A DNA stretch of 63,948 nt, the filler included, from Dimargaris cristalligena (taxonomy: Eukaryota): the NCBI GenBank assembly GCA_003614675.1. It is 4 parts of 4 records of this genome, joined end to end, with 100 filler letters (N's around TTAATTAATTAA, not from the genome) between each part and the next. Parts side by side here need not be neighbours in the genome. Positions count along the whole stretch, not along the records: positions 1 to 16,474 come from ML002843.1; 3 more parts are not named here. The stretch is one strand, 5' to 3'. The translations under genes were made by a program, and so were the position numbers. Of the stretch, positions 2,324 through 58,322 are shown piece by piece; the first letter of the stretch is position 1; each line of letters begins with the position of its first letter. Below the pieces are notes generated by a model. That model was not told the DNA's origin. It searched no databases and saw only the letters and a list, made by a program, of their open reading frames with translations.

Positions 2324-3626
2324 TGACTAGCAGGGATAGCAGGTGACCACCCCCCCAGGCGTTTTTTTCATATCACGTTTTGACCATTTCCCCATGAAAT
2401 CGGATATACCCTGCTGCACTCAACACATCCCATCCGCATGGAATGAGTCGAATAAATCATAAGGCATGTATTTTTAAATGAGGCATTGATTAGCGGAGAG
2501 CTATGTTAACCCTCCTCCATCTTATCTTTTCATGATTTAGTGCCCCAATATTAAATAATACCATACCAGCTATATTCGCTAAGGTAGTCGCAGGTGTAAT
2601 GGTGAATTGGTTAATCGGATACTTCCGAAAGTAATACCGCTATTTTTTGCTTACTGGCCCTGACATGCATATCGGCCATCCAGGCTAGCATGTCGCAGCC
2701 CAAGTCTACGCTTGTGGTAAAGGAGGATTGTTGGTAACCCGTTTAGTGATAAGCGGGATCGGAGGGTATGATTTAGTATATTTTACCCCTGGCTCAAATC
2801 CACTCATTATTGGTGGGGGCAGTAGCCCTTGACCTCCACAGTTTACAGAATTATCGGGTGGGCCAAGTTTGCCTACTTCAACTGTACTTGAAATCGAGAA
2901 TTGATGGGAATAATAGTCCATCCAGCAGCATTAATATTATTTTTTATGAATATATATGTCCGTCGGATACGTATAGATAACCAGAATCTCGCCGATAACG
3001 CTGGGTGGAGAAATCCACGTGTCGATAGGTAGATATAGCAGTAGTTCGTCAGACGGGAGAGAGAGAGGGGGGGTGGAGTGGACCCTTACCAAACGTGTGG
3101 GGTTCGAAAGGAAATAAAAAACGATAAAATATAAGGAATGGTGAGGCAGATAAGACAGCGACAGCATAGTGAATGATATAAGGGAGGGTGGGAAGAAAGA
3201 AAGAGAGGTATAAAGGGGAGGGGGGTGCGGGTAAACATGACAAGTACACAAGTACATATAGTAGTTATGAATGGTATGAAGAGAGAGGGGGAGATATAGA
3301 GGTCGAATTCGGAAAGGTAGACAACGGAGCAGGAGAGCGCCCAGGCGAGGGACAGGTTTATAAGGGAGAGGCATACGCCATTCACGAAATAGAGGGATAC
3401 TATCCATTAAGATCCAGAAACCATAGTGAGCGGGAAACGGCGAAAGATGTAGCGAAGGCGGGATAGACCGAAATGAGAGGGGTAGAGAACCGGGATTCCG
3501 GGGATTAGAAATGCAATTAACGGCTGGAAAGCGTAGGCGGCACTCGGTGGTCGGTATTCGCAATAGTGGGTGGGAGGGTCTCTGCTCGGTGATGGTAGGC
3601 GAGTTTGATTGAGTACGGGTCGGCAG

Positions 3627-4847
3627 TTACAGGAAGTAGTCGGGGGTACGGCGAGTAACATGGGGCTCTCCTCGTCTCGGGGCGGGGTCGAACGGCAAAA
3701 AGGTATATTTCATGTGCTCGTCGAGCTCCATGATGGCGGCCTGGTTACCGCAGCGGTAGCAGTAATTCGGGGCACTGAAAATCGTCACCACGTTCTTGTC
3801 CTGCGACCAATTGTAGCCCTCCATCACCAGTTGGTGGGCGCGGGCAATCAAAGTCAGGCCGTTGCTTTGGTTGAAGGCTTCGGAAATGTCCTGGCCAAAC
3901 GTGTAGCCCGCTCCACGGGGGGAGATGCCCCAGCCCATCCGGTCGTCAGGGTCGGACCACAGCAGATCGCACATGGGTCCTTCGTGGGGCACTTCCTGGA
4001 TCCGGTCGAGGGTACGTATTTGGTCCAGGGTATCTACGGACGGCGACAGGCCTCCGTGCAGGCAAAAGATTTGGTTTTCTATGAGGGCGGTCAGGGGTAG
4101 GTAGTCGAAAAGTTCGGTAAAGTGCTTCCACACGTCGGCGTTGCCGTATTTGCGCAGACATTCGTCGTAGAAGCCGTAGACTTGGGTGATTTGCCTGCTC
4201 TCGTGGTTACCCCGGAGAATGGTGATGCGGTCCTTATAGCGGACCTTCATGGCCACCAGCAGTGTGACGGTTTCGACGGAGTAGTAGCCACGGTCGACAT
4301 AGTCACCCATGAACAGGTAGTTCGTGTCGGGGGAGTTACCGCCAATCTTGAACAGCTCGACTAAATCGTGGAACTGGCCGTGGATATCCCCGCAGACCGT
4401 GACGGGGCAGCGCACGGGCTGGACGTTGGACTCCTTTAGAAGGACTTCCTTGGCCTGGGGTGGGAGATGGAGTAGATGGAAGAGGAAGGAGGGAATGGGG
4501 CTGTCATGTGGTTAGAATAGGCGCACTATGGTGAAGGAGGGGGGTGCTGGCTTGGCCAGATGCATAATAGTAGCAGGTCGGGGTGGCCTGCATGAGGAGA
4601 GGTTGGCTGGAAACTACCCGACTACTGTGCCCTCTTTTCTTGGTCATCTAGGTAGCCGGCGGTCCAGCGGAGTTGGGGGCAGGATCAAATGCACAGCTGA
4701 GGGAAAGAGGGGCGATATAGGGTTCAAGCAAAGGCGGGCTGAATTTACCTTTTCGCATAGTTTCTTGACATCTTGCTCGGGGAGTTGCTTGCATTCGGAG
4801 AGATGTTGGATCCAGGAGTCCAAGGTCGGGATGTCGGAATTGTCCAT
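3627..4847 (-). CDS. PPH21: Serine/threonine protein phosphatase 2A catalytic subunit; exons 4847-4749 and 4454-3627; 308 aa
   Basis: PPP motifs [27 protein letters not shown] and the PP2A C-terminus TPDYFL. A phase-0 GT..AG intron joins LCEK|AKEVL. Confidence 0.97.
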
Positions 4848-13934: not shown

Positions 13935-14282
13935 GATCGTGTGACGATGCCATACTTCGCGGTTACTCAATGAACTAATCGGAACCCCCATTTTGGCCTG
14001 GATAATCGTCCCAATCTTATAAAAGTATGGATAGCAGCCGTTCAATGTATTCAACCCTACCCCAACGGAGTATTGCTCCGCTCGTCTTCCGGTAGTTGCG
14101 AAGCAAATCTCCGGCAAGTCCCAATAACGAGAGTAAATAATAATTCTTTATAGATACTCTCCATTTACCTGCCTACCTACCCATCTATTCAATCAATTCA
14201 TTCGCATAGAAGACCACTTGTATTATCTTCCGTCTTCTCCATTAGGCGTATTTATCAATAATTGATTGCCAATTAGTCAGCC

Positions 14283-16234
14283 ATGTTGAATTCCCCCCTT
14301 TGGTTCGGTTTTCTGGCGGTCGGGGCCCATACCGTAGCCCATCCTACTGAAAGTCCGCCTCTCCCGAGTGGCCACCACCACCGACTGTGTATTTCGTCGA
14401 ACCAGGCGTCCAACGATCCACTTTCCTCTTGCTGGCGCAACTTACCCATTGAAATCAGCCAAAACATCATTTCCCAATTGGATGCCCCCAAGCAAATCGA
14501 TTTACTCAAAGATAACAGCCTTTGGCGGGCCAATCGGCGATTGTTGTTAGAGGAGGTAAGTTGTGGGCTAAAGGCATGTCTCTAGTAGTGCTAGATCCTA
14601 CTTAGGTAGGAGGTAGGGGGCTCCATATATATTCGCGGGATAAATTTAAACATGCCCTATATATCACTCATTGGGCAATACATTGGGGATATGCATATAT
14701 GCCTCGGCTGGTGATTCCCGGTTCCCTAAACTCACCAGCTGCATTCGCCTATTATATCATACATCAAACATAACACTCACACACCCCTACCTATATGGTT
14801 CCGTATAATAATTTCTATCACGGCACTATATAGATCATTGGGAAAACACACACTGCCTATTCGGACCAGAACCAATGGGATCAACTATCCACCACTTGGT
14901 TAGAACTAGCCCCTTTGGAAATCGTGGACAGTACCCTTTTCAAAATTGACGGCATGTCCCAGAAGACATACCCAGCGCAGCAACGCCTTTTCACGCAAGA
15001 AAACATCAACCTGTACTGCGAGCATTGGGGTGATTTCGAACAATTTGTAGTTGCCAACCGCCACCAACCGATCATTAGCCGCAATGCCCGCTACCCCCTG
15101 TTACTGGATACCTTATTAGCCACAGGCACATTTGCCCGGACGTTTCCCCTCGTAGCGGGCTTGGACGGCGCCACTTTGATCCAATTGTGGAAACTATACC
15201 AGGCTGGACGACAACAGCACTCGGGACCGCGTGAAACATTCACCTCCCCCCAACCGCCGTTGCCCCGGAGTTCGCGACGGCCCCTAGCAGCAGCAGCAGT
15301 CGTAGTAGCTACCACTATGGCCGCCACCACCACAACCGCCGCCCAGTTGACGTTACCCCTCGGGTCGCTGAACATCCACCGACTCAATCCTCCCCTCACA
15401 GTCCCGCAACTCCTACCCCATGTCATCCACCGCGTCAGCTATACGGCCCTCTGGTATTTTTATCAACAGGGCCACTTCGCCGATATTTACCGGTTTTTGG
15501 AGGGTAACACAGATCAGGTCCGCGACCCTAATCATCCCGTCGACTACATGTATTACGACCCCCGGCAACGTAATCGGGTGGCCATCTGGGCCCGCTTTTG
15601 CCTTACCTTGGCTTTTTTGAAAGATCAACCCGACCCAGAGACCGGAGGGGGGCCGTTCATCCAACGGCTCGTCCAAATCGTGGAACGCCACTACCGATTA
15701 ACGGCCCCCGGGTCGGTCGGTGCTGGTACCGGTACCGGGGTCGGGCCTAGATCCAAGTCCGAGACTGAGAGTGAGAGTGAGAGTGAGACCGATGCTGAAA
15801 TCGGGACTAGAGTCGGGAGTTTTGCCAGACGCCACCTTTCCCACTGGGTCTGTCTCCGATTCTGGAATTTCCACCAAGCCGCCGACCGCCTTTACGTGTT
15901 ATGGGGTTCCGTGGAATGGTTGTCAGCCCACCCCATTGTTCATCACGAAAATTGTCGCTGGCAGATTTTGGACCACCCCGCTCTGGCGTTCAATGGCCAG
16001 GGTCGCCTGGTACAGTTGGTACCCGAAACCCAGCTACAAGCAGCCAACGACGACCAACAACTGCCCCCCAAGGCCATGGAGATTCCCATGGGGTGGGTGG
16101 ATTATGACTATAAAACTAATCGGGCGTATCGAACCTTAATTCAGTGCCCCGCCGTTCAGGAACTGACGTACATGGAATGGGCTAGGGCAATGTTAATTAT
16201 GTTTTGGTTTCGCTTCTTACACCACATGGTGTAG
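14283..16234 (+). CDS. Putative secreted protein with an N-terminal F-box-like motif; exons 14283-14555 and 14834-16234; about 557 aa
   Basis: Signal-like N-terminus MLNSPLWFGFLAVGAHTVA|HP. WRNLPIEISQNIISQLD..Q..L....LW fits the F-box consensus. GAG|GTAAGT donor and TAG|ATC acceptor are in phase with the 439-aa ORF. Confidence 0.75.
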
Positions 16235-16423
16235 TTCTTCATAATTTATACACAATAATGTAAAAAAAGGAATAAACTGAAAGCAACTAAATTTATTTTC
16301 AAATGATTCCCAAGCCTGATAACCAAAACTAGTCGCGGATCATTTTATTTGTAAAAAGTGAGTAATATAGCAGCTAGATGCGATACTAGCATACAGCATA
16401 CAAATGGAAAACAAAAAAGGAGA

Positions 16424-16474
16424 CTCCGAAACGGGGAATTGAACCCCGACCGTCACGGTGAGAGCGTGAAATCC
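16424..16474 (-). tRNA. tRNA-Glu(CTC), 5' part cut off by the contig end
   Basis: Reverse complement reads GGATT TCACG-CT-CTC-AC-CGTGA CGGT CGGGG-TTCAATT-CCCCG TTTCGGAG: anticodon arm, T arm and 3' acceptor strand, followed by a T6 Pol III terminator at 16413-16418. Confidence 0.93.
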
Positions 16475-16574
16475 NNNNNNNNNNNNNNNNNNNNNNNNNN
16501 NNNNNNNNNNNNNNNNNNTTAATTAATTAANNNNNNNNNNNNNNNNNNNNNNNNNNNNNNNNNNNNNNNNNNNN
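16475..16574. other. Artificial contig linker (44N-TTAATTAATTAA-44N)
   Basis: Six-frame stop linker inside N runs, identical at three places. Confidence 0.97.
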
Positions 16575-16850
16575 TTTATTATCTATCTTTTCAAATAAAG
16601 TTCAGTTTTCAAGGATTTGATTTCAGTTCTTTACAGGTCACATCAACAGTAACATCCATTGGTATGACTTGGTGATAAGGGAAACAGCAGTAAACCCCTC
16701 GGCTATAAATATGGCATGGGCCACCCTCTCTTCAACTATCAATTACCCATTCACAGTTTATTGATCTGACAATTACATGCTTCCCCCCCTCCACAACCAC
16801 CGATTTCTTCAACCCACTCCCACTGCCCAATTTTAACCAATTTTCCGACC

Positions 16851-24275: not shown

Positions 24276-24695
24276 GGCGTGGGTCGCTCGCTAGTGGGGA
24301 GGGGAGAAAAAGGGATCGGCCGGTTGGGGTGTTGCAAGTGAACGGAGTAACCAGATAATAAACTAGAAATGGAGTGACTAGGTTGTGAAGAAAGACAAGG
24401 GACGCAATACAGCAACAGCAATGGCAAGAAGCAACTGACAGAAGCAGCAGCGTCCGAGATCAGGGCTGGCATAGTACCACTTGAGCCTTAAGAGAGGCTG
24501 ACGTACTCATAGGGCGCACCCTAACAGCTTGGGCGCAACCCTTCAGACTTGGTCAATTACCCACGAATCGTCCCACCTCGCTTACCCTACTATTTACCTG
24601 TTGTTGTTCTGGTACTCGAATGCGCCTCTCTATTTTTGTTTAGTTTGCAACTCCGTTCGGCTCTAGTTATTCCTTTGTCTCCCCCTCCCTGGAGC

Positions 24696-27600
24696 ATGGA
24701 CACTCCGAATGCCTCGTCTCAACAAGGCCCTCGCCCTGGCATGCCTCCCATGAATCTACCGGGCGGGGGTCCGTACCCCGGCTCCCCGGTACCGTCCATC
24801 AGCATGACCCCACGCTCAAGTGGATTCCGCCGCTTCCCCGTCACCGGCCGACCGTCCATCAGTGGTGGTGGTGGAGTCAGCGGTGGTCATCGCCCGGCAA
24901 TTGGTGGATTGGGACTGCCCAGCACCCCATTCGGGGGTGGCCCTTCCTTGGGACCCGGCTCCCCGTTTGGCACCAGGGCCCGACCTCCCGGCATGGACAA
25001 TCAAGCCGATCCCTTTCCACTAACCGCCACCCCGTCCGCCACGCTCGGCCGACTCCCCGACCATTTTTCATTGGAATCGACGCCGGCCCCGAATCGCCAT
25101 ATTTTTAGTACCTTTTCTCCGTTCCGGCAGACCACGGGCATCCCGCCTATGCACTCCGCCACCGCCTCGGTTCACTTGGAGGCGGAACGGCATTTCCCCC
25201 TGAACCTCGAGAAACCCTTGGCCGGATCGAGTGCGGATGCCAAGGCCCCCTCCGAACGGTCCGGCGCTCCATTGGACGAGGTGATTGATCGATTGCGGGG
25301 CTGGCGGCGATTCGCCATGGACGGGCTCATGTGGGACACCGCGGTTTACTGGGGGGAGAAGGTGCTCAGTATGACCCAGAACGTTTATGACCTCTACGCC
25401 CTCTGCTATATCCATATTGCCGCGGGTAATCTCCATCGGGCCGAGTACCTGCTCTTGGCCCACCCCCAATATGTCGCGTTTACGTATTCCAGCTGGGCGT
25501 GCCGCTACCTGGCCGCCCTGGCCTCCCTACAACTGGGGAAATACGCTGATACCTTGTGGATTCTCGGGGAACAGCCCCGGTATGGCAGCGGCGCCAGTGG
25601 CTTCGGAGTAGGGGGTGCCGGCCCTTCCTCCGCCTCCTCCCGACGCTTTTCGTCCACGGCTAAAGACGGCCGTACCTCCATTGGCGGGTCCATCGACCGC
25701 CGACCCCTGTGGAAGACATCGGCCAAGGGTTCTCGGCAAGGCCGATCGTCAGTAAGTGGCGGCCCGGCGGGGTCTAAGGCGCGGTATCCCCCCGACTTTC
25801 CCGATCTGCTCAATAGTCACCTAAGCACCCCCATATCCACCGCGCTAGACCGCGATCACCACGAATTTAAATTACCTCACACCGATGCCAAAACTCCCCA
25901 GCCGCCGACGACCCTATTGGGTCATTCCGGCGGCACCTTTCCCTCTCCGTTTGGACCTTCGCATGACCCTCCCATGTACATGACGGTAGCCGACACGCCC
26001 ACCAAGCCCAGCCAACCGGTCGGAACCATGTTGGCCGATGTCGACCTCCCCTCGGACTCAACTTTTCTGGCCAACCCCTTTACTCACCGGCTGGACTTTT
26101 TGGCCCCTCCGGCTCCGAGGACCGTCAAGTTCGCCACCCTCGATGGCTCTCCGGAATCCACCACCACGTCGACTGCCGATACTGCCACAACATCCATCCC
26201 TGCTAAACCCACCCATACTAAGCCGATGGAGACCACCTTCGGTCACCCCATGGTCTCCCCCTTTCCATCGACGAAGCCCCCCGTGGATTGGCCTGAGGAA
26301 GCGGGCTCTTTGAGACCTCCCAGCCCAGTAGGCATCAACTTTAATTCCGCCATTAGCTATCTACGTGGCCGGGCCTACCTGAATCAACAGGGTTTATTTC
26401 GGGCCAAGCAGAGTCTGAAGGAATCCGTTTTGTTCGATGTGCGGAACGTCCAGGCCTACCAGCTCATTCTGGATAGCCAACTCCTCACCCCAGCGGAGCT
26501 GCTACGGTTTGTGCACAACCTTCCCTTCCACGCCCAGTTGGGCTCCCTGGATGGTGACTTAGTGCGAGACCTATACCTTACCAAACTGAATACCCTCCAT
26601 CCCTACGCTAGCAGTGCCACACAACCGAGGAAGGGCGCTGTATCCCCGCCAACCATGGAAGCTCACCGCACCCCGGCCGATGAGAAACTAGACGCCCTCG
26701 TCCCCCTGGGATTCGAAACCGCCCTGACCAACCTAGTGGATCGTTTCCGGTTGCGCCATAACCCTGACCTCTGGACCGCTGGGGCCGAGCGGGCCTATGT
26801 TCGCGGCCAAATCCACGACTGTTTCACCTTGACCTCGGCCGTCCTACGGTCCGATCCCTACCACCTAGCCACTCTCCCCCTACATATCGCCTGCCTTTAT
26901 TCGCTCCGCATGAAGCACCAGCTGTTTTATTTGGCCCATGATTTGGTCGACTATTTCCATCACCATATATTAGCCCGGGCCAGTGCCCCCGCCATTGCGG
27001 TGTCCTCGGTTTCCACTGCCGCCGCTAGTCTGTTTCCCCCGGGTCGGTCACCGGGCCCCGCCCTCGCCGGGGATTCCGCACGGGGCCGGTTTGCCGACTC
27101 CCACGGCCTATGGCCCGATTCCACGGCAGCGGGCTCGGACGGCAATCCCTGGCGACCCCACGGTGCGTCCTCCGTATCGTTCCTAGCGGGCGCCGGCCCC
27201 ACCAGCGCCCAGGCCGACCGTTCGGCGATGATCACCCAAACCTCGAAGGAGTCGGCCCAGCCGATCCCCTGGTTTGCCGTGGGTTGCTACTACCTGCTCG
27301 TGGGCGATTACGCCCAAAGTCGCCGGTACTTCAGCCGGGCCTGCTCGCTAGACGCCCACTGTGGGCCGGCCTGGGTAGGATTTGCCCACTCCTTCGCCGC
27401 CGAAGCCGAGCACGAGCCGGCTACCACTGCCTATTCGGCTGCGTTCCGTCTCTTCCCGGGATCCCCGCTCCTCCCCCAATTCCTGGGCATGCAGTACCTC
27501 CAAATGGACAGTCTGGTCTTGGCCCAGGACTTCCTACTAACGGCCGTTCGTCACTGCGTAGGGGATTACCTTCACCACCACCGGCCAACGGCACCCCCAT

Positions 27601-28711
27601 CCTCGACCCGGGTGACCGAACTCACCGAAGACCCTCTGCCACCATTAGGGCCACCCACTGCTAATCGGGAAGTCCGGGTCCAAGGTGCCACGATACCATT
27701 TGCCCAGGCGATGTCAGACACCGGGGCGGCCCACCAGCTCGCGGATACCCTGGTCAATTCCTCGCTCCTCAACGAATTGGGCACGCTGGCCTATAAACAA
27801 GGCCGATACCCTGTCGCCCTCGTCTATTTAGAAAGAGCCGAGGCTGTGCTGGCCCAACCGGACCCGGCCTTTCGCTCCGCTGTGGTTGCGCTCCTAGGCG
27901 ACTCCGCCCCACCGGGTTTAACCCCTTCCGTTTCCTCAGCCACAACTGCGGCAAAGAACCCCGGCCAGTACGGCTCCGGATCGCTCTTCACGGCCAACGG
28001 CACCGTGGCCCCCGTGGTGGCATCGGGCCTCGAAACTATTTGGGTAAATTTGGCCCATACTCATCGACAGCTAAGACAATACCCCGAGGCCCTAAAATAT
28101 CTGGAAAAAGTTCGGGCCGTATCACCGCACGACTGTAATGTACTAACCACCATGGCCATGATATACCATATCCTGGGTCAGTTGGATGAAGCGATCATGT
28201 TATACCACCAGGTAAGTATAGGGCGAACGATACATTAAGCTGATGGGTGTTGCACTACGAATTGACAGTCTAGCATTCTTATGTTGGTTTGCTAATCTAT
28301 TAAAACTTTTTCTAATGTAAACATCTATGGCAACATTATTTCCTCTATTTTTTTACCTATACCCTGCATTAGATCCTTTCCGTTCAACCTAATGATATAT
28401 CAAGTTCCAAACTTCTTCAGCTTGCCGTGGAACAAATGACCCGGCGCCAGGGTTTACCTGAATCGATCGAAGCCCTGCCCGAGCGCCACTTAACCCCCGA
28501 CCGGGACAGTGGCGAGAGAAGCCATTCGATTTCCCAACCCACCCCACGGTCTCCGGCCCGAAATGGCCCGGTAGACGCTAACACATTTACCGTGGCCGTG
28601 CCCCAACCTCGCCCCCCAGGCAGGTTTGCCTGGACTACCACCTCCTCAGTCGAACCTGGTCCAAACTACGATGAGTCCGATATGGAAATGGAAATTGAAG
28701 AGGATTTGTAA
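24696..28711 (+). CDS. CDC16: Anaphase-promoting complex TPR subunit Cdc16/Cut9/APC6; exons 24696-28211 and 28373-28711; about 1284 aa
   Basis: LRGWRRFAMDGLMWDTAVYWGEKVLSMT, LFYLAHDLVD, WFAVGCYYL...SRRYFSRA, GPAWVGFAHSFAAEAEHE.A..AYS.A.RLF.G, LLNELG, WVNLAHTHRQL, and an acidic DMEME tail. Confidence 0.92.
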
Positions 28712-37417: not shown

Positions 37418-40400
37418 CTAGGGAGTCCACACATCCTGGCAGTAGCGACCCGCCGACTTCATTTGCAAAAGGTATTGTTCGGCGTTGGAGGCCGACATGC
37501 CGCCTTGGGTTTGGGCCATATCCTTAAGTACGGACCACACACCCGAATCCAGCTGAGTGGAGCCGCACACGTAAAGGTAGCCCAACTGACGGTGCCATAA
37601 ATCCCAGACGCGTTCGGCGTCGGCTTGGAGGCACTGTTGAACGTAGCTGCGGTAGAGGGCGTGTGGTGAAGGTTGGTGGTGGGGGGTTGCTAGATCTGAT
37701 TCGGATGAATCCGCGCGTGAGTAAGCCACAGCGTAGTGATCCAGGATTCCGGACCGTTGGTAACTATCCATTTCGTCGGCATACAAATGGTCCTCCGCGG
37801 GGTCGCGGCAGCCAAAGTAGAGGGCCATGGTGGACCGCCGACTGGTCGATTGCCATTCCGCAGAACGGGCCTGTAGGAACCCCCGGAACGGAGCGATACC
37901 GGATCCGGCGGCGATCATAATGACCGGTGCCTCTTGACTATACAATACAGGGGTGTCGATGGGCATGGGTGGTGGTGAAGCAACAACGGCCTTGCCCTCC
38001 ATCGATGATGGCGGCGGATTAATGAAAAAGGGTAACCGGAAGTGTAGGTTTTCCGAACGAACCCGCACCCAGAGTTGGGCTACTTGGTCCATGGAGGTCA
38101 GCCCCGCCAGGGGCGGGGTGGGGGCTAATCCGGCGAGGTAACCCGAGACTAGCCCAGGGTAGTGCTGCCCGTGGTGTTGGTCATTGATCACGGCCACGGT
38201 CAAATGGGCCTGGTAACAGCCGTCACTTTCGGCCAACCCGTCGCTGACTTCAGAAGCATGGCTACCTTCCTCCTCCGAGTCTGCCAAACGGTGGTGGCGC
38301 AGGCCCCGGGGTGAACTGGCTACGGAGTAGCGTCGCGGGGCCATACTGTGCAAATGGACCAACCATTCGGCCCAGCCGAACCCCAGTAAATGGGTTGTCC
38401 AATCCGCGGTTCCCACGAGCAGCTCGGCTGTCGTCCGGTACTGGGCCTGAAGGGCCTTGAGGGCCCGGGCCGTCTTGTCACTATCATCATGGCGGCTGCG
38501 ACCTAATTCCCGGAGGTGGGGGTGACGAGCCACAATATCTAGGTAATGTTGGGGCTTATCATCAGGTCCGGAGACCTGCGCAATGGCGTAGTAGAGCGAT
38601 TTGGGCGGGGCACCTAATAAATCGGCGAAATACACCAGGACGTCCCCCACGGTAGAAGTGGGCGGAATGGCCTTGATGAGGGAACGCATGGGCACATCCG
38701 TTCGTTGGGCATTGATCGGGGATACCGAGAAACCCTGGTGGAGGTCTAAGCCCAGGGCGTGGGCCACTTCCCCCACAGCGTTCAGTGGGTTCTGCGGCGC
38801 TAATTCGATATGATCCCCCGCTTCGTACGGGCAGGGCGAGGTGGTCTGAAGTTCAATGTGCCGGGTGCTCCGTCGGGTATCTGGTGGAGTGGAGGTAGGA
38901 TAATGGCGCAGTTCGTGGTTGGCAGTCACAAAAGCCGGGGTGTACCCTTGTTCCAGGAGGATTTGCTCGGTTGAAGATGCTACAGCGGAGCTACTGGAAG
39001 GACTGGAGACCTCGGCGATGATATTGGTGGTGGTGAGTATGGAATTAGAGGGAACTTCCGTAGCTTGGTGGACCAGCACATCGGAGAGGAATTCCAAATC
39101 AAGGGCTGTTTGGAGCTCCTGACCCCTCAAATCCGAGAGGTGTGGCTGGGACTGCGTCTTCACGTTCTTACCCGATGGCGACGTCAGGGATACATCAGGA
39201 ACGGGTGCCCCGATGCGGGGAGCCACGTTCAATTTCATAAACAAATGCGTGGCCAATTCCGCCGACCATTCCGAAAATATCTGATCGGTATCTTCCTTAT
39301 CGGAGTCACATTGGCCCAGCGGAAAGACGGAGGTTGCCCCCAGGTGTTTGAGGCTGTCTTGGATCAATTTCGGGAAAGCCTGGAAAGTCACCCACTGGCT
39401 GTTACCACAGCCGAAAGCGGCAAAACGGAGGTGGCTGAAGGGCAACCGGAAGGACCGGGCCTGGCGGACACTGCCATCCTGGTCAGACTCGGAATCCGGA
39501 TCCGTTTCCAAGGAGTTGAGGCGAGTGGTGGAACCCGAATCCGATCCCAAACCGGATAGCGAATTCGCCGTCGATGACGTACTGGTCTTGACCATTCGTT
39601 GGAGGTAGGCTTCTAGCTTAACCCCATTATCGGGAGCGAAGCCGTTGTAAGTACTCGTGAGGAACACCGTGAAATGGCGGTCGGACCGCGCGTGACTGCC
39701 CGTGCGGACGGGTTCTCCCTCAGCCGTAAAATTGAGGGGATCCTGCAGCCAGTCATCCAAGCCCTGTAACTGCACGATTTCACACCCCAAGTAAGCCAGC
39801 TGGGCGCCCAGTTGGCGGGCGTACTCTTCACACATGCCCATGTTCGAACCGAAGAGCAGCGAGAATTGGGGCATGGGCGGGAGAGGCGCCGACGGTGCCT
39901 TCATCATGGTGGGCGGTAGCACCAAATGACTCAACTTACTGGCCAGGAACATATACGACTGGCTTGAAATTTGCTTAATGAGCGACCCCGCTGAAAATGT
40001 CGAAGATGCGCGCCGTTGCATTACCCGCCCGGAGGCATCGGTGGATTGCCACCACGGTTTACTCGTGTCCCGGTGGTGTACGGACATGCGCAGGCCCATT
40101 GGTTTCAGGGTAATCCCCTTCGGGTCCCAGGGTACGGGCGTGGTATTAAGATTTCGGAACTCGAATTTGCGCAACATATAAGCCAGCACGATTTTCATTT
40201 CCTGCAGCGCGAATTGGAGGCCGATGCAGGACCGCGGGCCGGTGGAAAAGGGCATCCAGGCATAAGGGTGCCGTTGGGACACTGCTTCGGGGGTGAAGTG
40301 GTCGGGGTTGAACTGATCGGGGGTTGGGCCCCAATGGTCGGGGTTGCGGTGCAGACCGTAGGTGTGGACCTGGCAGGTGGTGCCCGCGTGACACTCGAAA

Positions 40401-41815
40401 CCGCCGGGCAATACGGCATCCTGCACGCAGTCCTTGACCAACAGGAAAATTGGTGGGTACAGCCGCATCGTTTCCTTAATGCACTGGGTGAGATAAGGTA
40501 ATTTGGCAATCTGCTGCGACGTGGGCTGGCCGTTATCGGGCAACTCGGCGTCGTCGATTTCGCGGAGCACGCGGCGCATGATTTTCGGGTGTTGGTTCAG
40601 CAAATAGAGGCACCAGCCCAGGGTGTTACTGGTGGTTTCGTGGCCCGCAATGAGGAAGGTAATCACTTGGTCACGGATGTTGATGTCATCAATGTACCGT
40701 TTTCCCCCGGCTTCGTCAATGTCGTAGGCATTCAACATGTATCCCAGGATATCCTTCCGCATGGTCGATTCCAGTTCCGGGGCCTGGCGCCGATCAGAAA
40801 CCACTTGGTCCACCGTGTCGGTCATGAGTTTGACCTTGGCCTGAAACTCGTAATTGCGGCGCAGCGGCAAGTGCTTCCAATAAGGGGTCAATACCATCCG
40901 GCTTAGACACTCGGATAGGGTAAAGTTAATGGCGTCGACAAACGGGTGGCTGGCCAGTTCGGGGGAATCCAGCAGATTGAAATTGTACCCGAATCCGACC
41001 CGGGCAATCGTTTCGAGGGCAATATTCGTGGTCCAGTGGGAAATATCCACTTCCGCATTCTGATCGGCAAAGGTTTCGAAAATACGGACGGCGTCACAGG
41101 CGATTTCGGCCATTTGATTAATGTAAATCCGCATGGCACTGGCCGAAAAAGCGGGAATAAGCAACTTATGGGCTAAACGCCAATGGTCGGTATCCGTATC
41201 ACTGGTGAATAATCCATTGCCGGCAACCGCCTGCAATTCGGCGAACGGATACACAATGCGTTTTTTAAAGTACACGCCCTCGGTCAGGAAATGTTCGGCC
41301 ACGACGGGATCACTGGTCAACACAATACGGGCGCCCATTAAACTAAGCGACACCAGATGGTTGTATTCGAGTAGGACGCGGTGCTCGTCCGCGACGAGAT
41401 CATTCATGAAGACGTTCAGGTTACCCACCAGGGGGTAGGGCTTGGGACCGGGGATGGGGCGGCGAATGCAAGTCTCTTCAATATAGACGATGATTTCACA
41501 CTGGATTTGGGCCCACGTGGTGAGTGGATCACCCAAGGCGGTACAGAAACGAACGTCACCAATGGGGGAGAGGTGGAGACAGGCGCGGGCGAGGTCGATG
41601 AACTGGTCGAGGGTTTCGATGGCCTGAACCGATAGAATTACCCCGTCCTTGTCCTCGCGACCACCCTGTGGAACGAGCACGATGATGGGGCGACCGGTAT
41701 GGACAGGACGGGGCGTGGGGTCGGCGGCCCCCCTGACTTTGTCAATTGTGTGGGTGAGCTCCGAAAAGCCATTTAATCCCACCGGGGAGGCTAAAGGGCC
41801 CGTGTGAAAATTCAT
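37418..41815 (-). CDS. Self-sufficient cytochrome P450 / NADPH-P450 reductase fusion (CYP102/CYP505-type architecture), intronless, 1465 aa
   Basis: P450 part: AGHETT, ETMR, FSTGPRSCIG. FMN domain: GSNMGMCE, TSTYNG, FGCGNSQW. FAD/NADPH domain: RRYSVASS, G.VSGYL, AGSGIAPFRGF, LYFGCR, YVQ, YVCG, DVW. Confidence 0.95.
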   Translation of the reverse strand: MNFHTGPLASPVGLNGFSELTHTIDKVRGAADPTPRPVHTGRPIIVLVPQGGREDKDGVILSVQAIETLDQFIDLARACLHLSPIGDVRFCTALGDPLTTWAQIQCEIIVYIEETCIRRPIPGPKPYPLVGNLNVFMNDLVADEHRVLLEYNHLVSLSLMGARIVLTSDPVVAEHFLTEGVYFKKRIVYPFAELQAVAGNGLFTSDTDTDHWRLAHKLLIPAFSASAMRIYINQMAEIACDAVRIFETFADQNAEVDISHWTTNIALETIARVGFGYNFNLLDSPELASHPFVDAINFTLSECLSRMVLTPYWKHLPLRRNYEFQAKVKLMTDTVDQVVSDRRQAPELESTMRKDILGYMLNAYDIDEAGGKRYIDDINIRDQVITFLIAGHETTSNTLGWCLYLLNQHPKIMRRVLREIDDAELPDNGQPTSQQIAKLPYLTQCIKETMRLYPPIFLLVKDCVQDAVLPGGFECHAGTTCQVHTYGLHRNPDHWGPTPDQFNPDHFTPEAVSQRHPYAWMPFSTGPRSCIGLQFALQEMKIVLAYMLRKFEFRNLNTTPVPWDPKGITLKPMGLRMSVHHRDTSKPWWQSTDASGRVMQRRASSTFSAGSLIKQISSQSYMFLASKLSHLVLPPTMMKAPSAPLPPMPQFSLLFGSNMGMCEEYARQLGAQLAYLGCEIVQLQGLDDWLQDPLNFTAEGEPVRTGSHARSDRHFTVFLTSTYNGFAPDNGVKLEAYLQRMVKTSTSSTANSLSGLGSDSGSTTRLNSLETDPDSESDQDGSVRQARSFRLPFSHLRFAAFGCGNSQWVTFQAFPKLIQDSLKHLGATSVFPLGQCDSDKEDTDQIFSEWSAELATHLFMKLNVAPRIGAPVPDVSLTSPSGKNVKTQSQPHLSDLRGQELQTALDLEFLSDVLVHQATEVPSNSILTTTNIIAEVSSPSSSSAVASSTEQILLEQGYTPAFVTANHELRHYPTSTPPDTRRSTRHIELQTTSPCPYEAGDHIELAPQNPLNAVGEVAHALGLDLHQGFSVSPINAQRTDVPMRSLIKAIPPTSTVGDVLVYFADLLGAPPKSLYYAIAQVSGPDDKPQHYLDIVARHPHLRELGRSRHDDSDKTARALKALQAQYRTTAELLVGTADWTTHLLGFGWAEWLVHLHSMAPRRYSVASSPRGLRHHRLADSEEEGSHASEVSDGLAESDGCYQAHLTVAVINDQHHGQHYPGLVSGYLAGLAPTPPLAGLTSMDQVAQLWVRVRSENLHFRLPFFINPPPSSMEGKAVVASPPPMPIDTPVLYSQEAPVIMIAAGSGIAPFRGFLQARSAEWQSTSRRSTMALYFGCRDPAEDHLYADEMDSYQRSGILDHYAVAYSRADSSESDLATPHHQPSPHALYRSYVQQCLQADAERVWDLWHRQLGYLYVCGSTQLDSGVWSVLKDMAQTQGGMSASNAEQYLLQMKSAGRYCQDVWTP

Positions 41816-44800
41816 TGGATAAACCTATTAGGGGGGCTGGTGGTGGTGGTTAATAAATGACAGTGATTGTGATCAAATGGTACCACGCAGGGGGGTGAGA
41901 CTATGAAACAGTCGAGTAACAGACTGGGCCAATGGTGACTAAAAGAGACGGCAGCTAGGAAAGATCAGCTGACAAACTAGAAAATGAGAGAGGAAAAAGA
42001 AGGGAGGCAAAGAAAGAGAGAAAGGGGCCAGTGAAGTGAGCACGCCCGCCAACAATATCCGCAAGGTAACCTCAGCGGGTTACTCTAAACCTCAAAGGGG
42101 GCTGCTTTAGGATTGAAGGGTGCAGGTGCCTTGTATTTAAAGCAAGTCCAGGAAAAAGCCGGAAATGAGCTCGAATACAACTACTTTAAGGTAATTGGAG
42201 GAAGCAATGATAGGCAGATAGTACAGAGATGTACAGCGAAACCGAGATGAATGAAAGGACAGGCCGAAAATCGGTAAATATAGTGGTGATTGCTATGCAG
42301 GGACTCGCTGAACGATACCAATATGTACTGGATTATCTTAGGCTGATAATAAATAGGGAGGGGGTCCTGTAGAACCGAACAAGCAGGTTTTAGTCGACAG
42401 TGACCACAACCCCGAGAATGCAATACTATTGGTGAAATACAGGAACAGATTAAATACGATTACAGTGGTGTTTAAGAAGGAGAGTTTGGATACCAACGAT
42501 CCATTGGGCAGTTAATTAGACCAAGCCGACCGTGGTGCGGACAAGTTCAAAAAAATAGGGATTAATTTAGATTGTTTTATATAGAGAAAGTACCGCAATC
42601 GATACCTTGAAATAAGAGAAAGGGGAGGGAGGCCATGGAAAGGGGAAAACAACACACCAATAACCAATCTGTACTGATTAGAGTAAGGAGGTGGGGCGAA
42701 CCTGCCGCTTTTATAGTTGGTTACAGCCGTTCCAACCCAGAATGCCATACGAAGATGTACAGTCGGTGCAAAAAAAACACATCTGGTATGACAGCATTCC
42801 ATTCACCCAAATAGATCCATAAACGGAGGCAAAAAAGGAGAGGAATAGGGGGAGTCTGGCTAAATTAATTGGCCAATGTCACAAGGGGGATGTACAATAA
42901 AGAAGGGGGTTCTAAAGTGGGGAGGGTGAGAGAACTGCTTTGGTCGGTGCAAGGTGGCAATGAAAAGCTGCGCCGGTATGTGATCAAGGGCTTGAGTGCC
43001 CATGGGTGTAACGCCAGACAAATGGCCGCGGCACAACTTGGTCTTTATTTACTGTGTTTCGCAGCCCCCTTCTCCCTCTCTTTTTACTCCTTGTTGCCGG
43101 CTCCGTAGAGTTCCGAGTTGTGCTTTACGGCGCAGTTAAGTTCACCCCTTACTTGGCCGATTTTTTCCTAAACCCGCACGGATTAAAGGATTGGCAATCA
43201 GGGTCTCCGTCCTCACGTATTCGGTCTTTCCTCTCACTCTCCTCTCATCTCCTCCCCTGACTATCAACCACAGATTCGGTCAGCCCTTGCTACGCATTGC
43301 AAATTTCTCCTAGTGTGCCGCCGATTGCCGCATATCCATAATAGAGTGGGCCTTTGGACTAATGTGTCGATGGGGGAATCCTTTAGCAAATAAGGCCAAT
43401 TATCAACTTGCGTATGCTTTGCACTATTGCCATCCCTTTTATTTTTATACATTCTGTTTAAAAATAAGGATGGTAAAAGGGGTGGCTGGGTAGAATATCG
43501 TAGAGAGTCACCGGAAACGCGTCTCCAAACGTAAATCCCTAAACTAGCCTAGCTCTGCAGCATTGGTGGTTGATGATTTACTATTATACAACATGAAGTA
43601 ACAACCAGTTTCTCTGGACCCCACACTCATCCCCTCCAATCCTACTTGCCCAAATACGGAAGATACCTCATCGGGCCTTTGATTTTGATATGCCCCTATC
43701 CGGTGGCTATCACCTACCACCCTACAACCCCGGTTTACATCCCTATGCCCCCCCCATTCACCCACCCCCGTTTCCGTCGCTGCGTCCGTCAACTCTGAGG
43801 CTACAAAGAGAGTCGGTTTAGTCCACCACCACGCCACTTTCTCCTGGTGATGTCTTTATCGTTTATTCGAGCGGATGAAGTCCCTCGAGTTCGCATCCAC
43901 GGAGTCAACCACATGTTCCGATTGGCCATGTTCAAAGTCAATCACCTAACAGTTCACCCATCCCTACCCCAACGCACTCTGCGAAGCCCGCCGTGGTAGT
44001 TCTCTGCTTAATCAACTTGGTCGCGGCTACTTCATTGTGTAGCTTACTCCGGTTTATTCAGAACTCACTAAATGGAGGACAGCCGCCAAACTCCAAAAAA
44101 ACAACAACTAGTTGCTTCCAATAACCTAATAACTGAACGAAGGAAGGGGGGCTGGCTCTTTCACTCTCATATGGTACGACCCACTTTTATCCTCCAGCGA
44201 ACGGCCGGTTATACTCAGGCCATTAATTTGGTCGCATTGGGCAGTTTTTCCTATAACAGGCTTCCAAAACACCGATTTGCCTGCCCCGGTTGCACCGACG
44301 ACCAACGGGCAGGCAATGGCGATGGCTGGCCTATCTGGTCTACTCAAAGTCCAAGGTAAAGTGGAGAAAACTTAGTTCAGAGGTCCCTAAAGACAAATTT
44401 GGCGAGGGGGGGGCTCAATACACGCCTCAGTGACGGGTATTTCAATCTGTGATTAGCAAGTACAGGGTCCAATGCATGTTTTATCTATGAATATGTCGTA
44501 GTGAATGGGGGCATTAGCAAACAAATTCGCACCCTCAGTGACTGGGCCATTCTCTACCTATTAATTATGAATTATTCGAAAAGTGGTGGAAGGCAACTAG
44601 TAGCGCGAAGCACAATACTATACGGACAGAATGGAGAGTGGCCAGTGTCCCACTGAATAAACTCTGTATTATAATTATGTATTTACCACGGGGTATAACC
44701 CCAAGCCAGCACTACGGGCTATAGCAATCTATCCTTTTCGGTAGGTTCGTTGGTGTTACAAGTATAAGGACAGCCCGTATTTTCCCTTACTTGGTTTTTT

Positions 44801-54305: not shown

Positions 54306-55763
54306 ATTTTTTCGACAGCATTAATGTGGATAATCCAGTGAAAGTTACCCTCTATCAAAGTATCGTTAGAAAGGCCAATAATACATAGCACGTTAAATAA
54401 CAAACCCCTTCAAAATAACTGGGCGGAAGCCGTACATTCCTATAGTCCGTAAATGGGCGGGAATCGCCACCTCATATCCGTTGAATTCAACCAATTACGG
54501 AGGCTGGCTTCCACCTTTCCATTTGTGTCTAAATAGGGTCAAGAACCCTTAACATAATGGTGTCTAGACTCCTTCAATAAAACATTTACTTCCACCCTTC
54601 CCCATTTGGACTACCTTCTGGTCAATTCCAGCTACTTGCACACGATATATCTATACCAGTTAACTAATGGAGGGCTGGACGGTCCCAACTAATAGTAGGT
54701 GTCCCACCCAACTCCCCTCATGTACACGCCATTAAAAAACTATTTGGCAAAGTTGAAATGCAATCAAAAATATTCAAAGTCCCCTAAATCCCAATTGGGC
54801 GTGATTGGTCTCCCATAAGGCTGGTTTTCTATGGGTTGAAATTAGCCTACTAAAGCAATGGTTACACTTTTGGTCTGGTAGTAGTACTTGGGACAACTGT
54901 ACAATACTTAAACTTGGCGAAAAGGGGGTGAACATACACAGGTTATCGGCTATGCTCTTCTGGTGAAAAAGGTGCCATTGAGCGGAAAGCAGGCATAGGG
55001 TATCTGCTTTCCAATCAAGCCGGTGGCTTCTTTATTTCAGTACAATTCACTATTATTAAAGAGGTTTACACTAGTAGCTATTCGTCACTCAAAAGTCAAG
55101 CTCAGTGAAAGGGCCTTAATACTACAGTAAAACATTCCAGAATGATGGTATTGGCCACTTCATGTGAATGGGGCGAACGGCACCCCGAGTATAATGGCCG
55201 GCCTGACAGACGATTCCATTCATAATTCGAATCATAACTGGTAGTGGTAGGGTGGTCGTTAAAACACCGAATTGCATGGGTGACGTGGAAAGAAGACGAC
55301 GCCTTCCAATAATGGGTGATAATCGGCAGTTAAGTATTCATCAAGAAGGGCGATTCCCGAACGAAAGGTGAAGCGGTGGAGGATAATTTGAAGAGCACTA
55401 CATATTTAATTGTAGTATATAAACTGCCTGAATTGCTGACCAACCACTATCAATTCAACCAACAACTTCATATTTTCTCCCCCCTTCTCTTTAACTCCAG
55501 CACACCATAGCCTCTATCCCCTTACTCTTACTCGGATCGTCCCATCTCTTTTCATTCCGCCTTTCACTCGTTCGCCCATCCAAAAAGGTAATAGGCCCGG
55601 TAATTTTGGTCAAGTTCTACAACTTCACCACATTAAAAATAAAATTTTCATTTGAACTAGAAATATATTTCAAAACACGACCACTAACCATTGTGTGTAT
55701 TGAAATCGCGTTCTTTTTTGATACTCGGCATTAACCACATCTCCAGATAAACCCAAGCCAACC

Positions 55764-58322
55764 ATGTCCGAACCCCAGGTAATCGCTCAGCGCCCTGACT
55801 TCGGCAAGTTGGGCAGTAACATTCCGATCAATGCCAACTTTATTGAGATCGAGGCATTTGGTGAGGACCCAGTTCACCACTATGACCTCAAAATACTCCC
55901 CGAAGTACCGGCCGAACTGGGCCGCGAGGTGTTCCAGGTTCTCGAAAACCAGCTACGCCATAACTTGTTCCAAGGCACCTACCCCGTTTTTGACGGAAAG
56001 TACAACATGTACTCCCCCGTGGTATTAGCCCTTGCGGATGGTAAGGGCGAATTCGACGTGTACTTACCCCGGGATCAGAAGCGTCTCGAGAGTGCCCCCG
56101 CAGGCAAGGGTCCGAAACCCTTCAAAGTGTCCCTGCGAAACGTCGCTATGATCAATATGGGCGTTCTACGCGAATTTGTTTCCGGGCGCATCGAGTTTAA
56201 CCCCCAGGTCCAGTCAGCCATCAGTATTCTCGACGTTGCGTTTCACCATCTGCCCGCTAGCAAGTACCCTAGTGCCAAGAACTCCTTCTACACGTCTGAA
56301 GGGAAGCAGGCCATCTCAGGGGGTATTGAAGTCTGGCCGGGGCTTTTCCAGTCAGTGCGCCCCACCCAGGGCCGGGTGCTACTGAATGTCGACGTTAGCT
56401 CGACCGCATTCTACGCCCCCGGATCGCTGCTAAACAGCGTCGTTCGGTGCCTCAACAAGGTTGACCCCCTCGAACTGCTCAACCTTCGGGAGCACGAGAT
56501 GCGCAACCTGCAGAAGATGATCAAGGGGATTCCCGTGACGTTGACCCACCGCGACCAGGGGGAACGCATTTTTAAGCTCAAGGGTATTAGCGAGCGCGGG
56601 GCTAACCAAACCATGTTTAATTTGCGCAGCGAAGACGAAACCGAAACCAAGATGTCCGTCGCGAAGTACTTTTCCGACCATCTGAACATCCCGGTGCGCT
56701 ACCCTACCCTCCCCTGTGTTGAATTGAAACGCGGGACCATGGTGCCTATTGAGTTTTGCACGGTGGTCTCTGGTCAACGCTTTATGCGCAAACTTGATGA
56801 GCGCCAGACCGCCGAAATGATTAAGTTCACGTGTGTGCGACCCCAGGAGCGATTTAAACGCATTACTAAGCAGGCTTCGGATCTGCTTTGTTTCAACTCC
56901 AATCCCTACCTGAAGGCGTTTGGCATTAAACTGAACGGAAAAATGCTCAGCATCAACGGTCGGCAGCTACCCCCGCCCACCGTGGTCTACGGAGGTAATT
57001 CCAAGGATCGTAATGTTAAGCCCAAGGACGGGTCCTGGAATATGCGTGATAAGTGTTTCGTTGTGGCGGCCGAAATCCCATCGTACGGCGTCCTGGTGTT
57101 GGACCGGGAAAATGGCCAATCCCGAAAAATGGTGAGTGGGTTTATGGGACAACTTAACAAAATTCTCTTCAACATGGGCATCGAATTAGCGGATAGAACA
57201 CCCTCCATCACTTTCGGCCACTATATGGGCAACTTTAACCAAAGTCTAGAAAAGGCGCAATCGGAAGCCCGGCGCGTTTTCCAACAGACACCGCGGATTA
57301 TCTATGTTCTGGTGGGCTCCACGGCCAGTTCCGTATACGGGGAGATTAAGCGCATCTCGGATACAAAACTGGGGATTATCACCCAGTGCATGCAACTGTC
57401 GAAGATTCGCCGGCCTAATAATATTCAGTACATGGCCAATGTGGCCCTGAAAATCAATGTGAAACTGGGGGGTATTAACTGCCTCCTGGAACCAAAACAA
57501 ACCACATTCATATCTGGTGGGTCGACCATGGTCATCGGTGCCGATGTCACCCACCCAGGCCCCGGTAATAACACCGATCCATCCATTGCCGCTGTCGTCG
57601 GATCGATTGACAAATCGATGACTCGGTTCGTCAGCGAAGTCAGCGTGCTCCCTCCGCGCACTGAAATTATTGCCTCCCTATCCGAGTCCGTAAGCAAAAT
57701 GCTCAAGGCATTTAAGCAGGAAAACCAATGCCTACCCCGCCGGATTCTCTTCTATCGCGATGGTGTTTCGGAAACCCAATTCCAAACGGTGCTAGTCGAA
57801 GAACTGGCGGGCATTAAAAAGGCCGCCGAGGAGGTGAACGATGGCGAATCGATTCTGGTAACGTTTATCACTTGTCAGAAGCGCCACCACGTGAGGTTTA
57901 GCCCTCTCAACCCCGGCCGAGGTGACCGCTCGGGCAACTGCCCCGCCGGTACCGTCGTGGACCGTGGTGTGACCCACCCCAAAGAATTCGATTTCTTTCT
58001 GCAATCGCAGGGGGGTCTTCAGGGCACCTGCCGTCCCACCCGCTACACCGTATTATATGATGATAATGACTTCACAGCCGACGATTTGCAGCAGCTGACA
58101 AATCAGTTGTGTTATTTGTATCCGCGTTGTACTCGCTCGGTGTCGCTTTGCCCTCCTGCATATTTCGCCGATTTGCTAGCGTCCCGAGCCCGCTTCCACC
58201 GTGGCAGTCGGAGTGATTTTGAGGACAATCCGACTCTGGTCACCCCCACTACTGGACATCGCGACGATATTCAGCTGGTGCCGGTGATGCTGGGTCTAAA
58301 GGAGGTACTCTACTTTATGTAG
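55764..58322 (+). CDS. AGO: Argonaute (N-PAZ-MID-PIWI), 852 aa, single coding exon
   Basis: ANF start, QSVRPT, LNVDVS, PAZ SVAKYF...YPTLPC...PIEFC, MID YGEIKR/TQC/KINVKLGG, PIWI GADVTHP, RTEII, YRDGVSE, KRHH.RF, GTVVD, QGTCRP, PAYFADL. Confidence 0.97.
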   Translation: MSEPQVIAQRPDFGKLGSNIPINANFIEIEAFGEDPVHHYDLKILPEVPAELGREVFQVLENQLRHNLFQGTYPVFDGKYNMYSPVVLALADGKGEFDVYLPRDQKRLESAPAGKGPKPFKVSLRNVAMINMGVLREFVSGRIEFNPQVQSAISILDVAFHHLPASKYPSAKNSFYTSEGKQAISGGIEVWPGLFQSVRPTQGRVLLNVDVSSTAFYAPGSLLNSVVRCLNKVDPLELLNLREHEMRNLQKMIKGIPVTLTHRDQGERIFKLKGISERGANQTMFNLRSEDETETKMSVAKYFSDHLNIPVRYPTLPCVELKRGTMVPIEFCTVVSGQRFMRKLDERQTAEMIKFTCVRPQERFKRITKQASDLLCFNSNPYLKAFGIKLNGKMLSINGRQLPPPTVVYGGNSKDRNVKPKDGSWNMRDKCFVVAAEIPSYGVLVLDRENGQSRKMVSGFMGQLNKILFNMGIELADRTPSITFGHYMGNFNQSLEKAQSEARRVFQQTPRIIYVLVGSTASSVYGEIKRISDTKLGIITQCMQLSKIRRPNNIQYMANVALKINVKLGGINCLLEPKQTTFISGGSTMVIGADVTHPGPGNNTDPSIAAVVGSIDKSMTRFVSEVSVLPPRTEIIASLSESVSKMLKAFKQENQCLPRRILFYRDGVSETQFQTVLVEELAGIKKAAEEVNDGESILVTFITCQKRHHVRFSPLNPGRGDRSGNCPAGTVVDRGVTHPKEFDFFLQSQGGLQGTCRPTRYTVLYDDNDFTADDLQQLTNQLCYLYPRCTRSVSLCPPAYFADLLASRARFHRGSRSDFEDNPTLVTPTTGHRDDIQLVPVMLGLKEVLYFM

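Follow-up and report, generated by a model that had tools for sequence, protein, structure and literature searches.

Agrobacterium VirF and Legionella AnkB are translocated F-box effectors, and the SSGP-71 proteins of the Hessian fly, the subject of Zhao et al. 2015, reportedly carry secretion signals. According to passages of PMC4617103, SSGP-71 proteins have been reported to interact with host Skp proteins, and the Ralstonia protein RipG7, whose F-box is required for virulence, interacts with ASK proteins of Arabidopsis. Here we describe a gene of the fungus Dimargaris cristalligena, located at 14283-16234 on the plus strand of a stretch of 63,948 nucleotides, filler included, that joins four parts of assembly GCA_003614675.1 (the window, to which all coordinates refer). 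The predicted product combines a signal-peptide-like N-terminus, an F-box-like motif and an all-helical domain, in an order that recurs in two of its relatives, and for this protein a role as a secreted effector is possible.

Like the SSGP-71 proteins, the Dimargaris protein belongs to a eukaryotic parasite and would place an N-terminal F-box ahead of a target-binding domain, but SSGP-71 proteins have a recognisable cyclin-like F-box, leucine-rich repeats (LRRs) and a very large family, whereas here the F-box is sub-threshold, the helical domain is unannotated and without LRRs, and two copies are seen. Its conceptual link to the RipG/GALA proteins, VirF and AnkB would be that a pathogen supplies an F-box to recruit SKP1 and the Skp1-Cullin-F-box (SCF) ligase of its host, but these bacterial proteins reach the host through type III or type IV secretion systems rather than carrying a eukaryotic signal peptide, and their substrate domains are LRRs or ankyrin repeats. 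No sequence relation to SSGP-71 or RipG/GALA was detected: there was no LRR or ankyrin match in Pfam, none of the nine HMMER matches described below carries such a domain, and none of the bacterial effectors is among them.

Ordinary fungal F-box proteins (PF00646/PF12937) are similar in having an N-terminal LPxEI-type motif ahead of a large lineage-specific domain, and the UniRef label of the deposited protein of this gene is 'F-box domain-containing'. They differ in that the matches obtained here reach 14.8-17.4 bits, where 20.5-24.3 would be required, and are confined to helix 1, and in that a conserved signal-like N-terminus is atypical for them. The Mortierellomycotina orthogroups OG0000176 and OG0000338 likewise comprise proteins of zygomycetes that are annotated with PF12937 and predicted to carry a secretion signal, but they come from mainly non-parasitic fungi, and the likeness is one of table annotation only (PMC9391592, Table S6). 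As an observation in its own right, F-box-like proteins of zygomycetes are repeatedly predicted to bear signal peptides, and such predictions may in many cases be false, as far as the tabulated part of that source goes (PMC9391592).

Gene structure and the helical-domain family

The elements of the gene and of its predicted product are as follows.

14283..14555, plus strand: exon 1, 91 codons, an open frame to GAG GAG followed by GTAAGT, with the C-terminal end ..LLLEE
14556..14833, plus strand: intron 1, 278 nt, GTAAGT...TATAG, phase 0, G+C content (GC) 0.42
14834..16231, plus strand: exon 2, 466 codons, with the stop codon TAG at 16232-16234
16093..16234, plus strand: inferred second intron of the NCBI model, more likely coding, at least to 16159; GC at third codon positions (GC3) 0.50-0.62
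14283..14339, plus strand: signal-peptide-like N-terminus, residues 1-19 MLNSPLWFGFLAVGAHTVA, with candidate cleavage between TVA and HP
14433..14555, plus strand: F-box-like motif, residues 51-91 WRNLPIEISQNIISQLDAPKQIDLLKDNSLWRANRRLLLEE, of which residues 51-69/70 (14433-14492) are matched by Pfam
14834..16159, plus strand: family-defining all-helical domain, exon 2 residues 1-442, supported by HMMER, alignment A1, BLASTP and the AlphaFold2 (AF2) model

The start codon, ATG, lies at 14283, 9 nt downstream of an in-frame TAG (14274-14276), and the spliced product is 557 aa without an internal stop. The GC of exon 1 (0.52) and exon 2 (0.56) is higher than that of the intron (0.42) and the flanks (0.41 and 0.32), and GC3 is 0.60 and 0.63 in the two exons; since these values set the exons apart from intron and flanks, composition agrees with the two-exon structure. 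Over 90% of its length the exon 2 open reading frame (ORF) matches, at 100% identity, a deposited D. cristalligena protein of 513 aa (P0001; NCBI BJ085DRAFT_33978), in which the junction of exon 1 and exon 2 is identical to that read here. The paralogue P0002, a second D. cristalligena protein (BJ085DRAFT_27353), crosses the same junction without a gap in the alignment, its residues 31-94 matching 14388-14579 and its residues 87-496 matching 14834-16159 in a tblastn search against the window. On this evidence we regard the locus as a genuine two-exon gene of D. cristalligena, and the gene model of a preliminary description of this DNA, with two exons and a phase-0 intron directly after the motif, proves correct in terms of open frame, composition, the join in P0001 and the gap-free alignment of P0002. 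An upstream exon spliced into 14277 was also considered and rejected, as it would bury the signal-like stretch, and P0002 and a more divergent homologue, P0004, likewise begin with Met directly before their hydrophobic stretches.

At the 3' end the deposited and the observed reading frames part company, as P0001 ends in ..PMGSS while the open frame runs on. The deposited NCBI model appears to excise 16093-16234 (GTGGGT...TAG, 142 nt) as a second intron. Exon 2 residues 421-442, however, align by BLASTP with the C-terminus of P0002 (AYRTLIQCPAVQ vs AYRVLIQCPSVQ), and because the stretch 16093-16159 thus aligns to the paralogue, the 3' end given in the preliminary description, with the stop codon ending at 16234, is to be preferred to the NCBI ending; the deposited 3' end and 3' intron are probably wrong. 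The last 24 residues (ELTYMEW...HHMV; 16160-16231) have no counterpart in any homologue. The C-terminal tail reaches a Kyte-Doolittle (KD) hydropathy of up to 1.33 over 14 residues, and a glycosylphosphatidylinositol signal in this hydrophobic tail (..WARAMLIMFWFRFLHHMV) was considered and set aside, given that the tail contains Arg and is not conserved, P0002 stopping shortly after ..QCPSVQ.

Exon 2 had been called an orphan, but it can now be assigned to a family. A HMMER search of 1.84 billion representative proteins at a threshold of E<=0.001 returned nine matches, namely the gene itself (P0001), seven collinear homologues and a 571-aa tandem-repeat protein (P0005), with E values of 1e-61 for P0002 and of 1.7e-10 to 2.4e-4 for P0003 to P0009. 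P0005 was left out of the alignment as a probably spurious match, since it covers only query residues 88-131 (44 residues). By BLASTP, P0002 is 36% identical (E 8e-78) as far as exon 2 residue 442. Word-based searches were narrower in yield: among 8000 candidates scored, exon 2 matched the gene itself alone, and with the profile of alignment A1 (P0001 and the seven homologues) the 8000 candidates scored yielded P0001 and P0002 alone. In A1, 14 columns are invariant, and the conserved blocks of the helical domain are Y..Q..WD.L...W..LAPLE.WD, F..AN, FPL, LW.LY, ARF..TLA and G.L.Q.VP. Pairwise identity is 17-27% among the distant members and 19-40% among P0001, P0002 and P0004.

The domain is all-helical in the AF2 model, which has a predicted template modelling score of 0.65 and a mean predicted local distance difference test score (pLDDT) of 58.7, rising to 70-92 in the core blocks. 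Pfam has no family for exon 2, nor for the helical domain of the seven homologues, and the only rows of the whole-protein Pfam search were PRANC for P0001 (E 0.072) and Lactamase_B_3 for P0004 (E 0.18). Sequence searches of the PDB gave one match each for P0001 and for profile A1, at noise level (E 0.61 and 0.56), and a Foldseek search with the AF2 model gave no match at E<=0.001 in the PDB (best 0.97) or in BFVD (best 0.096). The best ESM Atlas scores, which serve as leads only, were 0.86 for P0001 (whose own model there has a pLDDT of 0.36) and 0.83 for P0004. No second copy of the gene was found by tblastn of all nine proteins against the 64-kb window. Taken together, the gene is one of at least two D. 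cristalligena paralogues in a small, previously unannotated family with a helical domain without known relative. Within the domain, P0001 carries two low-complexity insertions:

15218..15364, plus strand: low-complexity insertion 1, P0001 residues 220-268, Pro-rich and then an Ala/Val/Thr run, pLDDT <50, largely missing from the other members, which have gaps in the alignment there
15713..15787, plus strand: low-complexity insertion 2, P0001 residues 385-409, Gly/Thr and then a Ser-Glu repeat, pLDDT <50, with gaps there in the other members

The protein is also poor in cysteine, with 7 Cys among its 557 residues, as compared with 7 in P0002 and 0-4 in five homologues; it has no N-glycosylation sequon and is near-neutral (pI 6.9).

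The N-terminal module

The signal-like N-terminus is present as the preliminary description had it, and equivalents occur in P0002 and P0004. Each of the three proteins begins with Met followed by a hydrophobic stretch and small residues (MLNSPLWFGFLAVGAHTVA in P0001, MRIPFSIGLVVVGISDLIPLTLCLG in P0002 and MRLLNGIFPALTIGSTLLLYGLG in P0004), and in P0001 the core is, by inspection, LWFGFLAVGA, followed by T-V-A and the candidate cleavage before H. The peak KD hydropathy over eight residues is 2.24 in P0001 (at residue 6), 3.08 in P0002 and 1.84 in P0004, as compared with 1.51 or less in the other five members. P0001 has no Lys or Arg among its first five residues. In P0002 and P0004 the hydrophobic stretch is preceded by an Arg at position 2 and followed by acidic residues, and under the positive-inside rule such flanking charges favor translocation of the C-terminal side and, in these two of the three members, an N-in/C-out orientation. 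No further transmembrane-like segment was found in the 557-aa protein, in which the top 19-residue KD value is 1.50 at residue 242, in the Ala/Val/Thr run of insertion 1, this being the only 19-residue window with a KD of at least 1.4. We consider it fairly probable that the N-terminus works as a signal peptide, mainly because this hydrophobic feature has persisted in members sharing no more than 19-40% identity.

The F-box-like motif follows some 20-30 residues past the hydrophobic stretch in P0001, P0002 and P0004, in the form LPxEI..I.S......LL, with P, E, I, S and LL unchanged in all three motif-bearing members. In exon 1 the motif WRNLPIEISQNIISQLD...LWR is present as first described, whereas its match to the F-box and F-box-like Pfam models stays below threshold. 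Residues 45-91 match F-box-like (PF12937; E 0.0038, 17.4 bits, cut-off 24.3, profile positions 1-19 of 47), PRANC (PF09372; E 0.0091, 16.8 bits, cut-off 25.8) and F-box (PF00646; E 0.027, 14.8 bits, cut-off 20.5), and these three families, all of the F-box clan, are the sole Pfam matches of the P0001 motif segment. The AF2 model has short helices at residues 56-63, 68-76 and 78-83, with a pLDDT of only ~40-52. Two leads come from the features search of the Atlas, where an F-box cluster appears for P0001 at rank 21 (score 0.81), and for the divergent P0004 eight of the ten best named matches lie in the F-box family or clan (0.75-0.76). No Skp1 gene and no second F-box gene was found among the scanned ORFs of the window (41 of the 94 of at least 95 aa, nine long ORFs and the two exons), the ORFs outside that scan overlapping assigned genes on other frames. 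That the motif is a functional F-box is, in our estimation, a possibility that falls a little short of an even chance.

The signal-like N-terminus is thus followed by the F-box-like motif in three of the eight members (P0001, P0002 and P0004), a recurrence which argues that the arrangement is not a one-off prediction artefact. The preliminary description had gone further and suggested that the exon encoding both is a reusable cassette, spliced genome-wide to many different substrate-binding exons. The intron does sit exactly between motif and domain, and two homologues with short N-termini, P0006 and P0009, start only a few residues away from the point where exon 1 meets exon 2, so the intron position is possibly conserved; these start points hint at a conserved intron and at gene predictors that missed a short 5' exon. 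Yet P0002 and P0004, the sole other carriers of the module, bear the same C-terminal domain, a word-based search with exon 1 among longer proteins, for which the query is short, recovered the gene itself only (1 of 84 candidates), and the tblastn search, which was confined to the 64-kb window, also gave no second copy. A cassette with variable C-termini is accordingly very improbable, and the three-part order of signal-like N-terminus, F-box-like motif and ~440-residue Cys-poor all-helical domain is, as judged from the alignments, a conserved unit rather than a shuffled one.

A possible secreted F-box effector

We propose, tentatively, that this is a secreted family whose F-box-like motif would act on host Skp1 after delivery from the haustorium, and we rank this reading, itself less likely than not, first among three that are close in likelihood. 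D. cristalligena is described as a mycoparasite (PMC6784888), and the Dimargaritales are described as attacking Mucoromycota and some Ascomycota by means of an appressorium and a haustorium, at least in the relevant passages of PMC9866270, so that the parasitic-fungus setting assumed at the outset holds for a gene whose exon 2 is 100% identical to a protein of this haustorial mycoparasite. In the proposed sequence of events, the N-terminus would take the protein into the secretory pathway and the N-in/C-out orientation would put the motif and the domain outside the parasite cytosol. Release would follow at the haustorium, where parasite meets host, and the F-box-like motif, if working, could meet Skp1 only inside the host hypha; there the helical domain would choose which host proteins the SCF ubiquitinates. 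The reading draws on the conserved signal-like N-termini and their flanking charges, on a Cys-poor, sequon-free, all-helical domain that would suit the reducing cytosol of a host cell, and on the parasitic life of the fungus, and it has precedents in SSGP-71, a eukaryotic one for signal-bearing F-box effectors, and in RipG/GALA. That the protein reaches the host and acts there is purely inferred. The fullest form of the proposal, in which a signal-bearing, Cys-poor helical family uses a degenerate F-box to dock on the Skp1 of the parasitised fungus, turning the host SCF on targets chosen by a new substrate domain, is distinctly unlikely.

A number of points weigh against an effector role, and several of them concern the motif. 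The scores of the three F-box-clan families all lie below their gathering cut-offs, and only profile positions 1-19/20, which correspond to helix 1, are aligned. The motif segments of P0002 and P0004 have no Pfam match at E<=10, so that one of the three members is matched, and in the whole-protein search of P0001 only PRANC remains (E 0.072). Searches of the PDB at E<=10 with the profile of the three motifs (five matches) and with the single segment (one match) retrieved no F-box protein. The helix-3 Trp (W81) is not conserved among the three motif-bearing members, and the AF2 pLDDT is below 50 over residues 1-62. The low scores limited to helix 1, the unmatched segments of P0002 and P0004, the failure to retrieve a solved F-box protein and the variable W81 all speak, together with the signal-like N-termini of three members, for a secreted or cell-surface protein without F-box function, in which the signal is real, the LPxEI motif is a chance or degenerate likeness (for example, the first helix of the family fold), and the helical domain acts extracellularly or at the wall or haustorial interface. 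It would then be unexpected that the three best and sole Pfam matches all fall in one clan and that language-model searches lead independently to F-box families (for P0004, and for P0001 at rank 21), and few cysteines with no N-glycosylation sequon would be unusual for an extracellular fungal protein of 557 residues, a judgment that draws in part on general knowledge. A secreted protein of this kind is, on balance, somewhat improbable.

Other points against an effector concern the N-terminus itself. The h-region of P0001 is short (KD of 1.54 over 12 residues) and a basic n-region is absent, so that the window copy is the weakest of the three, and five of the eight members lack the N-terminal module in their deposited models, although these models may be truncated. 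F-box proteins usually carry the F-box at the N-terminus, with a large unannotated domain behind it. This layout and the weak hydrophobic stretch of the window copy would suit an endogenous SCF substrate receptor, that is, an F-box protein of the fungus itself whose helical domain binds the fungus's own substrates, the hydrophobic stretch being irrelevant or an anchor in an internal membrane with the F-box cytosolic. Such a receptor would also agree with F-box-clan families being the only Pfam matches, with the UniRef name, and with traits of an intracellular type (helical, Cys-poor, sequon-free, pI 6.9, with long disordered low-complexity loops). A hydrophobic N-terminus kept in three members that are 19-40% identical is nevertheless unexpected for a chance false positive, the charges of P0002 and P0004 favor translocation of the C-terminal side and hence an F-box on the wrong side of the membrane, and the F-box match, on which this explanation depends as well, is partial and below threshold. 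We hold an endogenous receptor to be somewhat improbable.

What is recorded for other zygomycetes bears on both the effector and the endogenous receptor. The predicted secretomes of non-parasitic Mortierellomycotina hold two F-box-like (PF12937) orthogroups beside RhoGAP, Hsp70, AAA and Sir2 families (PMC9391592, Table S6), and the many plainly intracellular families included in zygomycete predicted secretomes, as far as they are tabulated there, favor the receptor. With such families present, a predicted signal on an F-box-like protein is neither rare nor linked to parasitism, and in-silico secretomes are unreliable here, as far as the tabulated annotations go (PMC9391592); such a signal on an F-box-like protein is, alone, weak evidence. 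Only two copies were found in D. cristalligena, which argues that there is no effector-like expansion. The main text of the paper describing the genome (PMC6784888) contains no instance of the word stem 'transcriptom'.

Genomic context and significance

The window is otherwise that of an ordinary fungal chromosome, with genes for an ANAPC3/TPR protein, a P450-reductase fusion, two Argonautes, a PP1-type phosphatase, LETM1 and a protein kinase. The Argonaute genes are in tandem (55722-58319 and 60305-62806, both on the plus strand); the first (55722-58319) has the six Argonaute Pfam domains complete in one ORF of 866 aa, while in the second (60305-62806) an in-frame stop at 61160-61162, which could be a short in-frame intron, an error or the mark of a pseudogene, splits ArgoN+L1 from partial PAZ+L2+Mid+Piwi. 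On the minus strand, 2940-4511 holds a PP1-type Metallophos ORF (3630-4511) and then, after a single stop, a 229-aa ORF in the same frame (2940-3626) without a Pfam match, and 37421-41824 is a single 1468-aa ORF with cytochrome P450, flavodoxin, FAD-binding and NAD-binding domains, the layout of a self-sufficient P450-reductase. The part of the window richest in GC (0.58-0.62) holds a 1237-aa intron-free ORF at 24525-28235 (plus strand) that encodes ANAPC3 and, C-terminally, TPR repeats. At ~16421-16575, runs of N (~16466-16519 and ~16532-16575) flank 'ttaattaatta' and adjoin a stretch resembling the 3' half of a minus-strand tRNA; ARAGORN reported 0 tRNAs in the window.

Literature searches found no paper linking D. 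cristalligena to F-box proteins and no paper using the phrase 'secreted F-box', and a search combining the terms mycoparasite, effector, F-box and haustorium gave nothing relevant by title. To our knowledge, the molecular means by which biotrophic mycoparasites of the early-diverging fungi influence the fungi they attack are almost entirely uncharacterized. F-box mimics that hijack the host SCF are already known as a concept; the novelty here would lie, at most, in parasite and host both being fungi and in the new substrate domain. If the protein is secreted and binds Skp1, the hijacking of host SCF would extend from bacteria, viruses and a gall midge to a fungus-on-fungus interaction and would gain a new substrate-recognition fold, and this would be the first F-box mimic effector from a fungus, and the first to act between two fungi. 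If it does not, the locus still defines an unannotated family of helical domains and corrects the deposited gene model.

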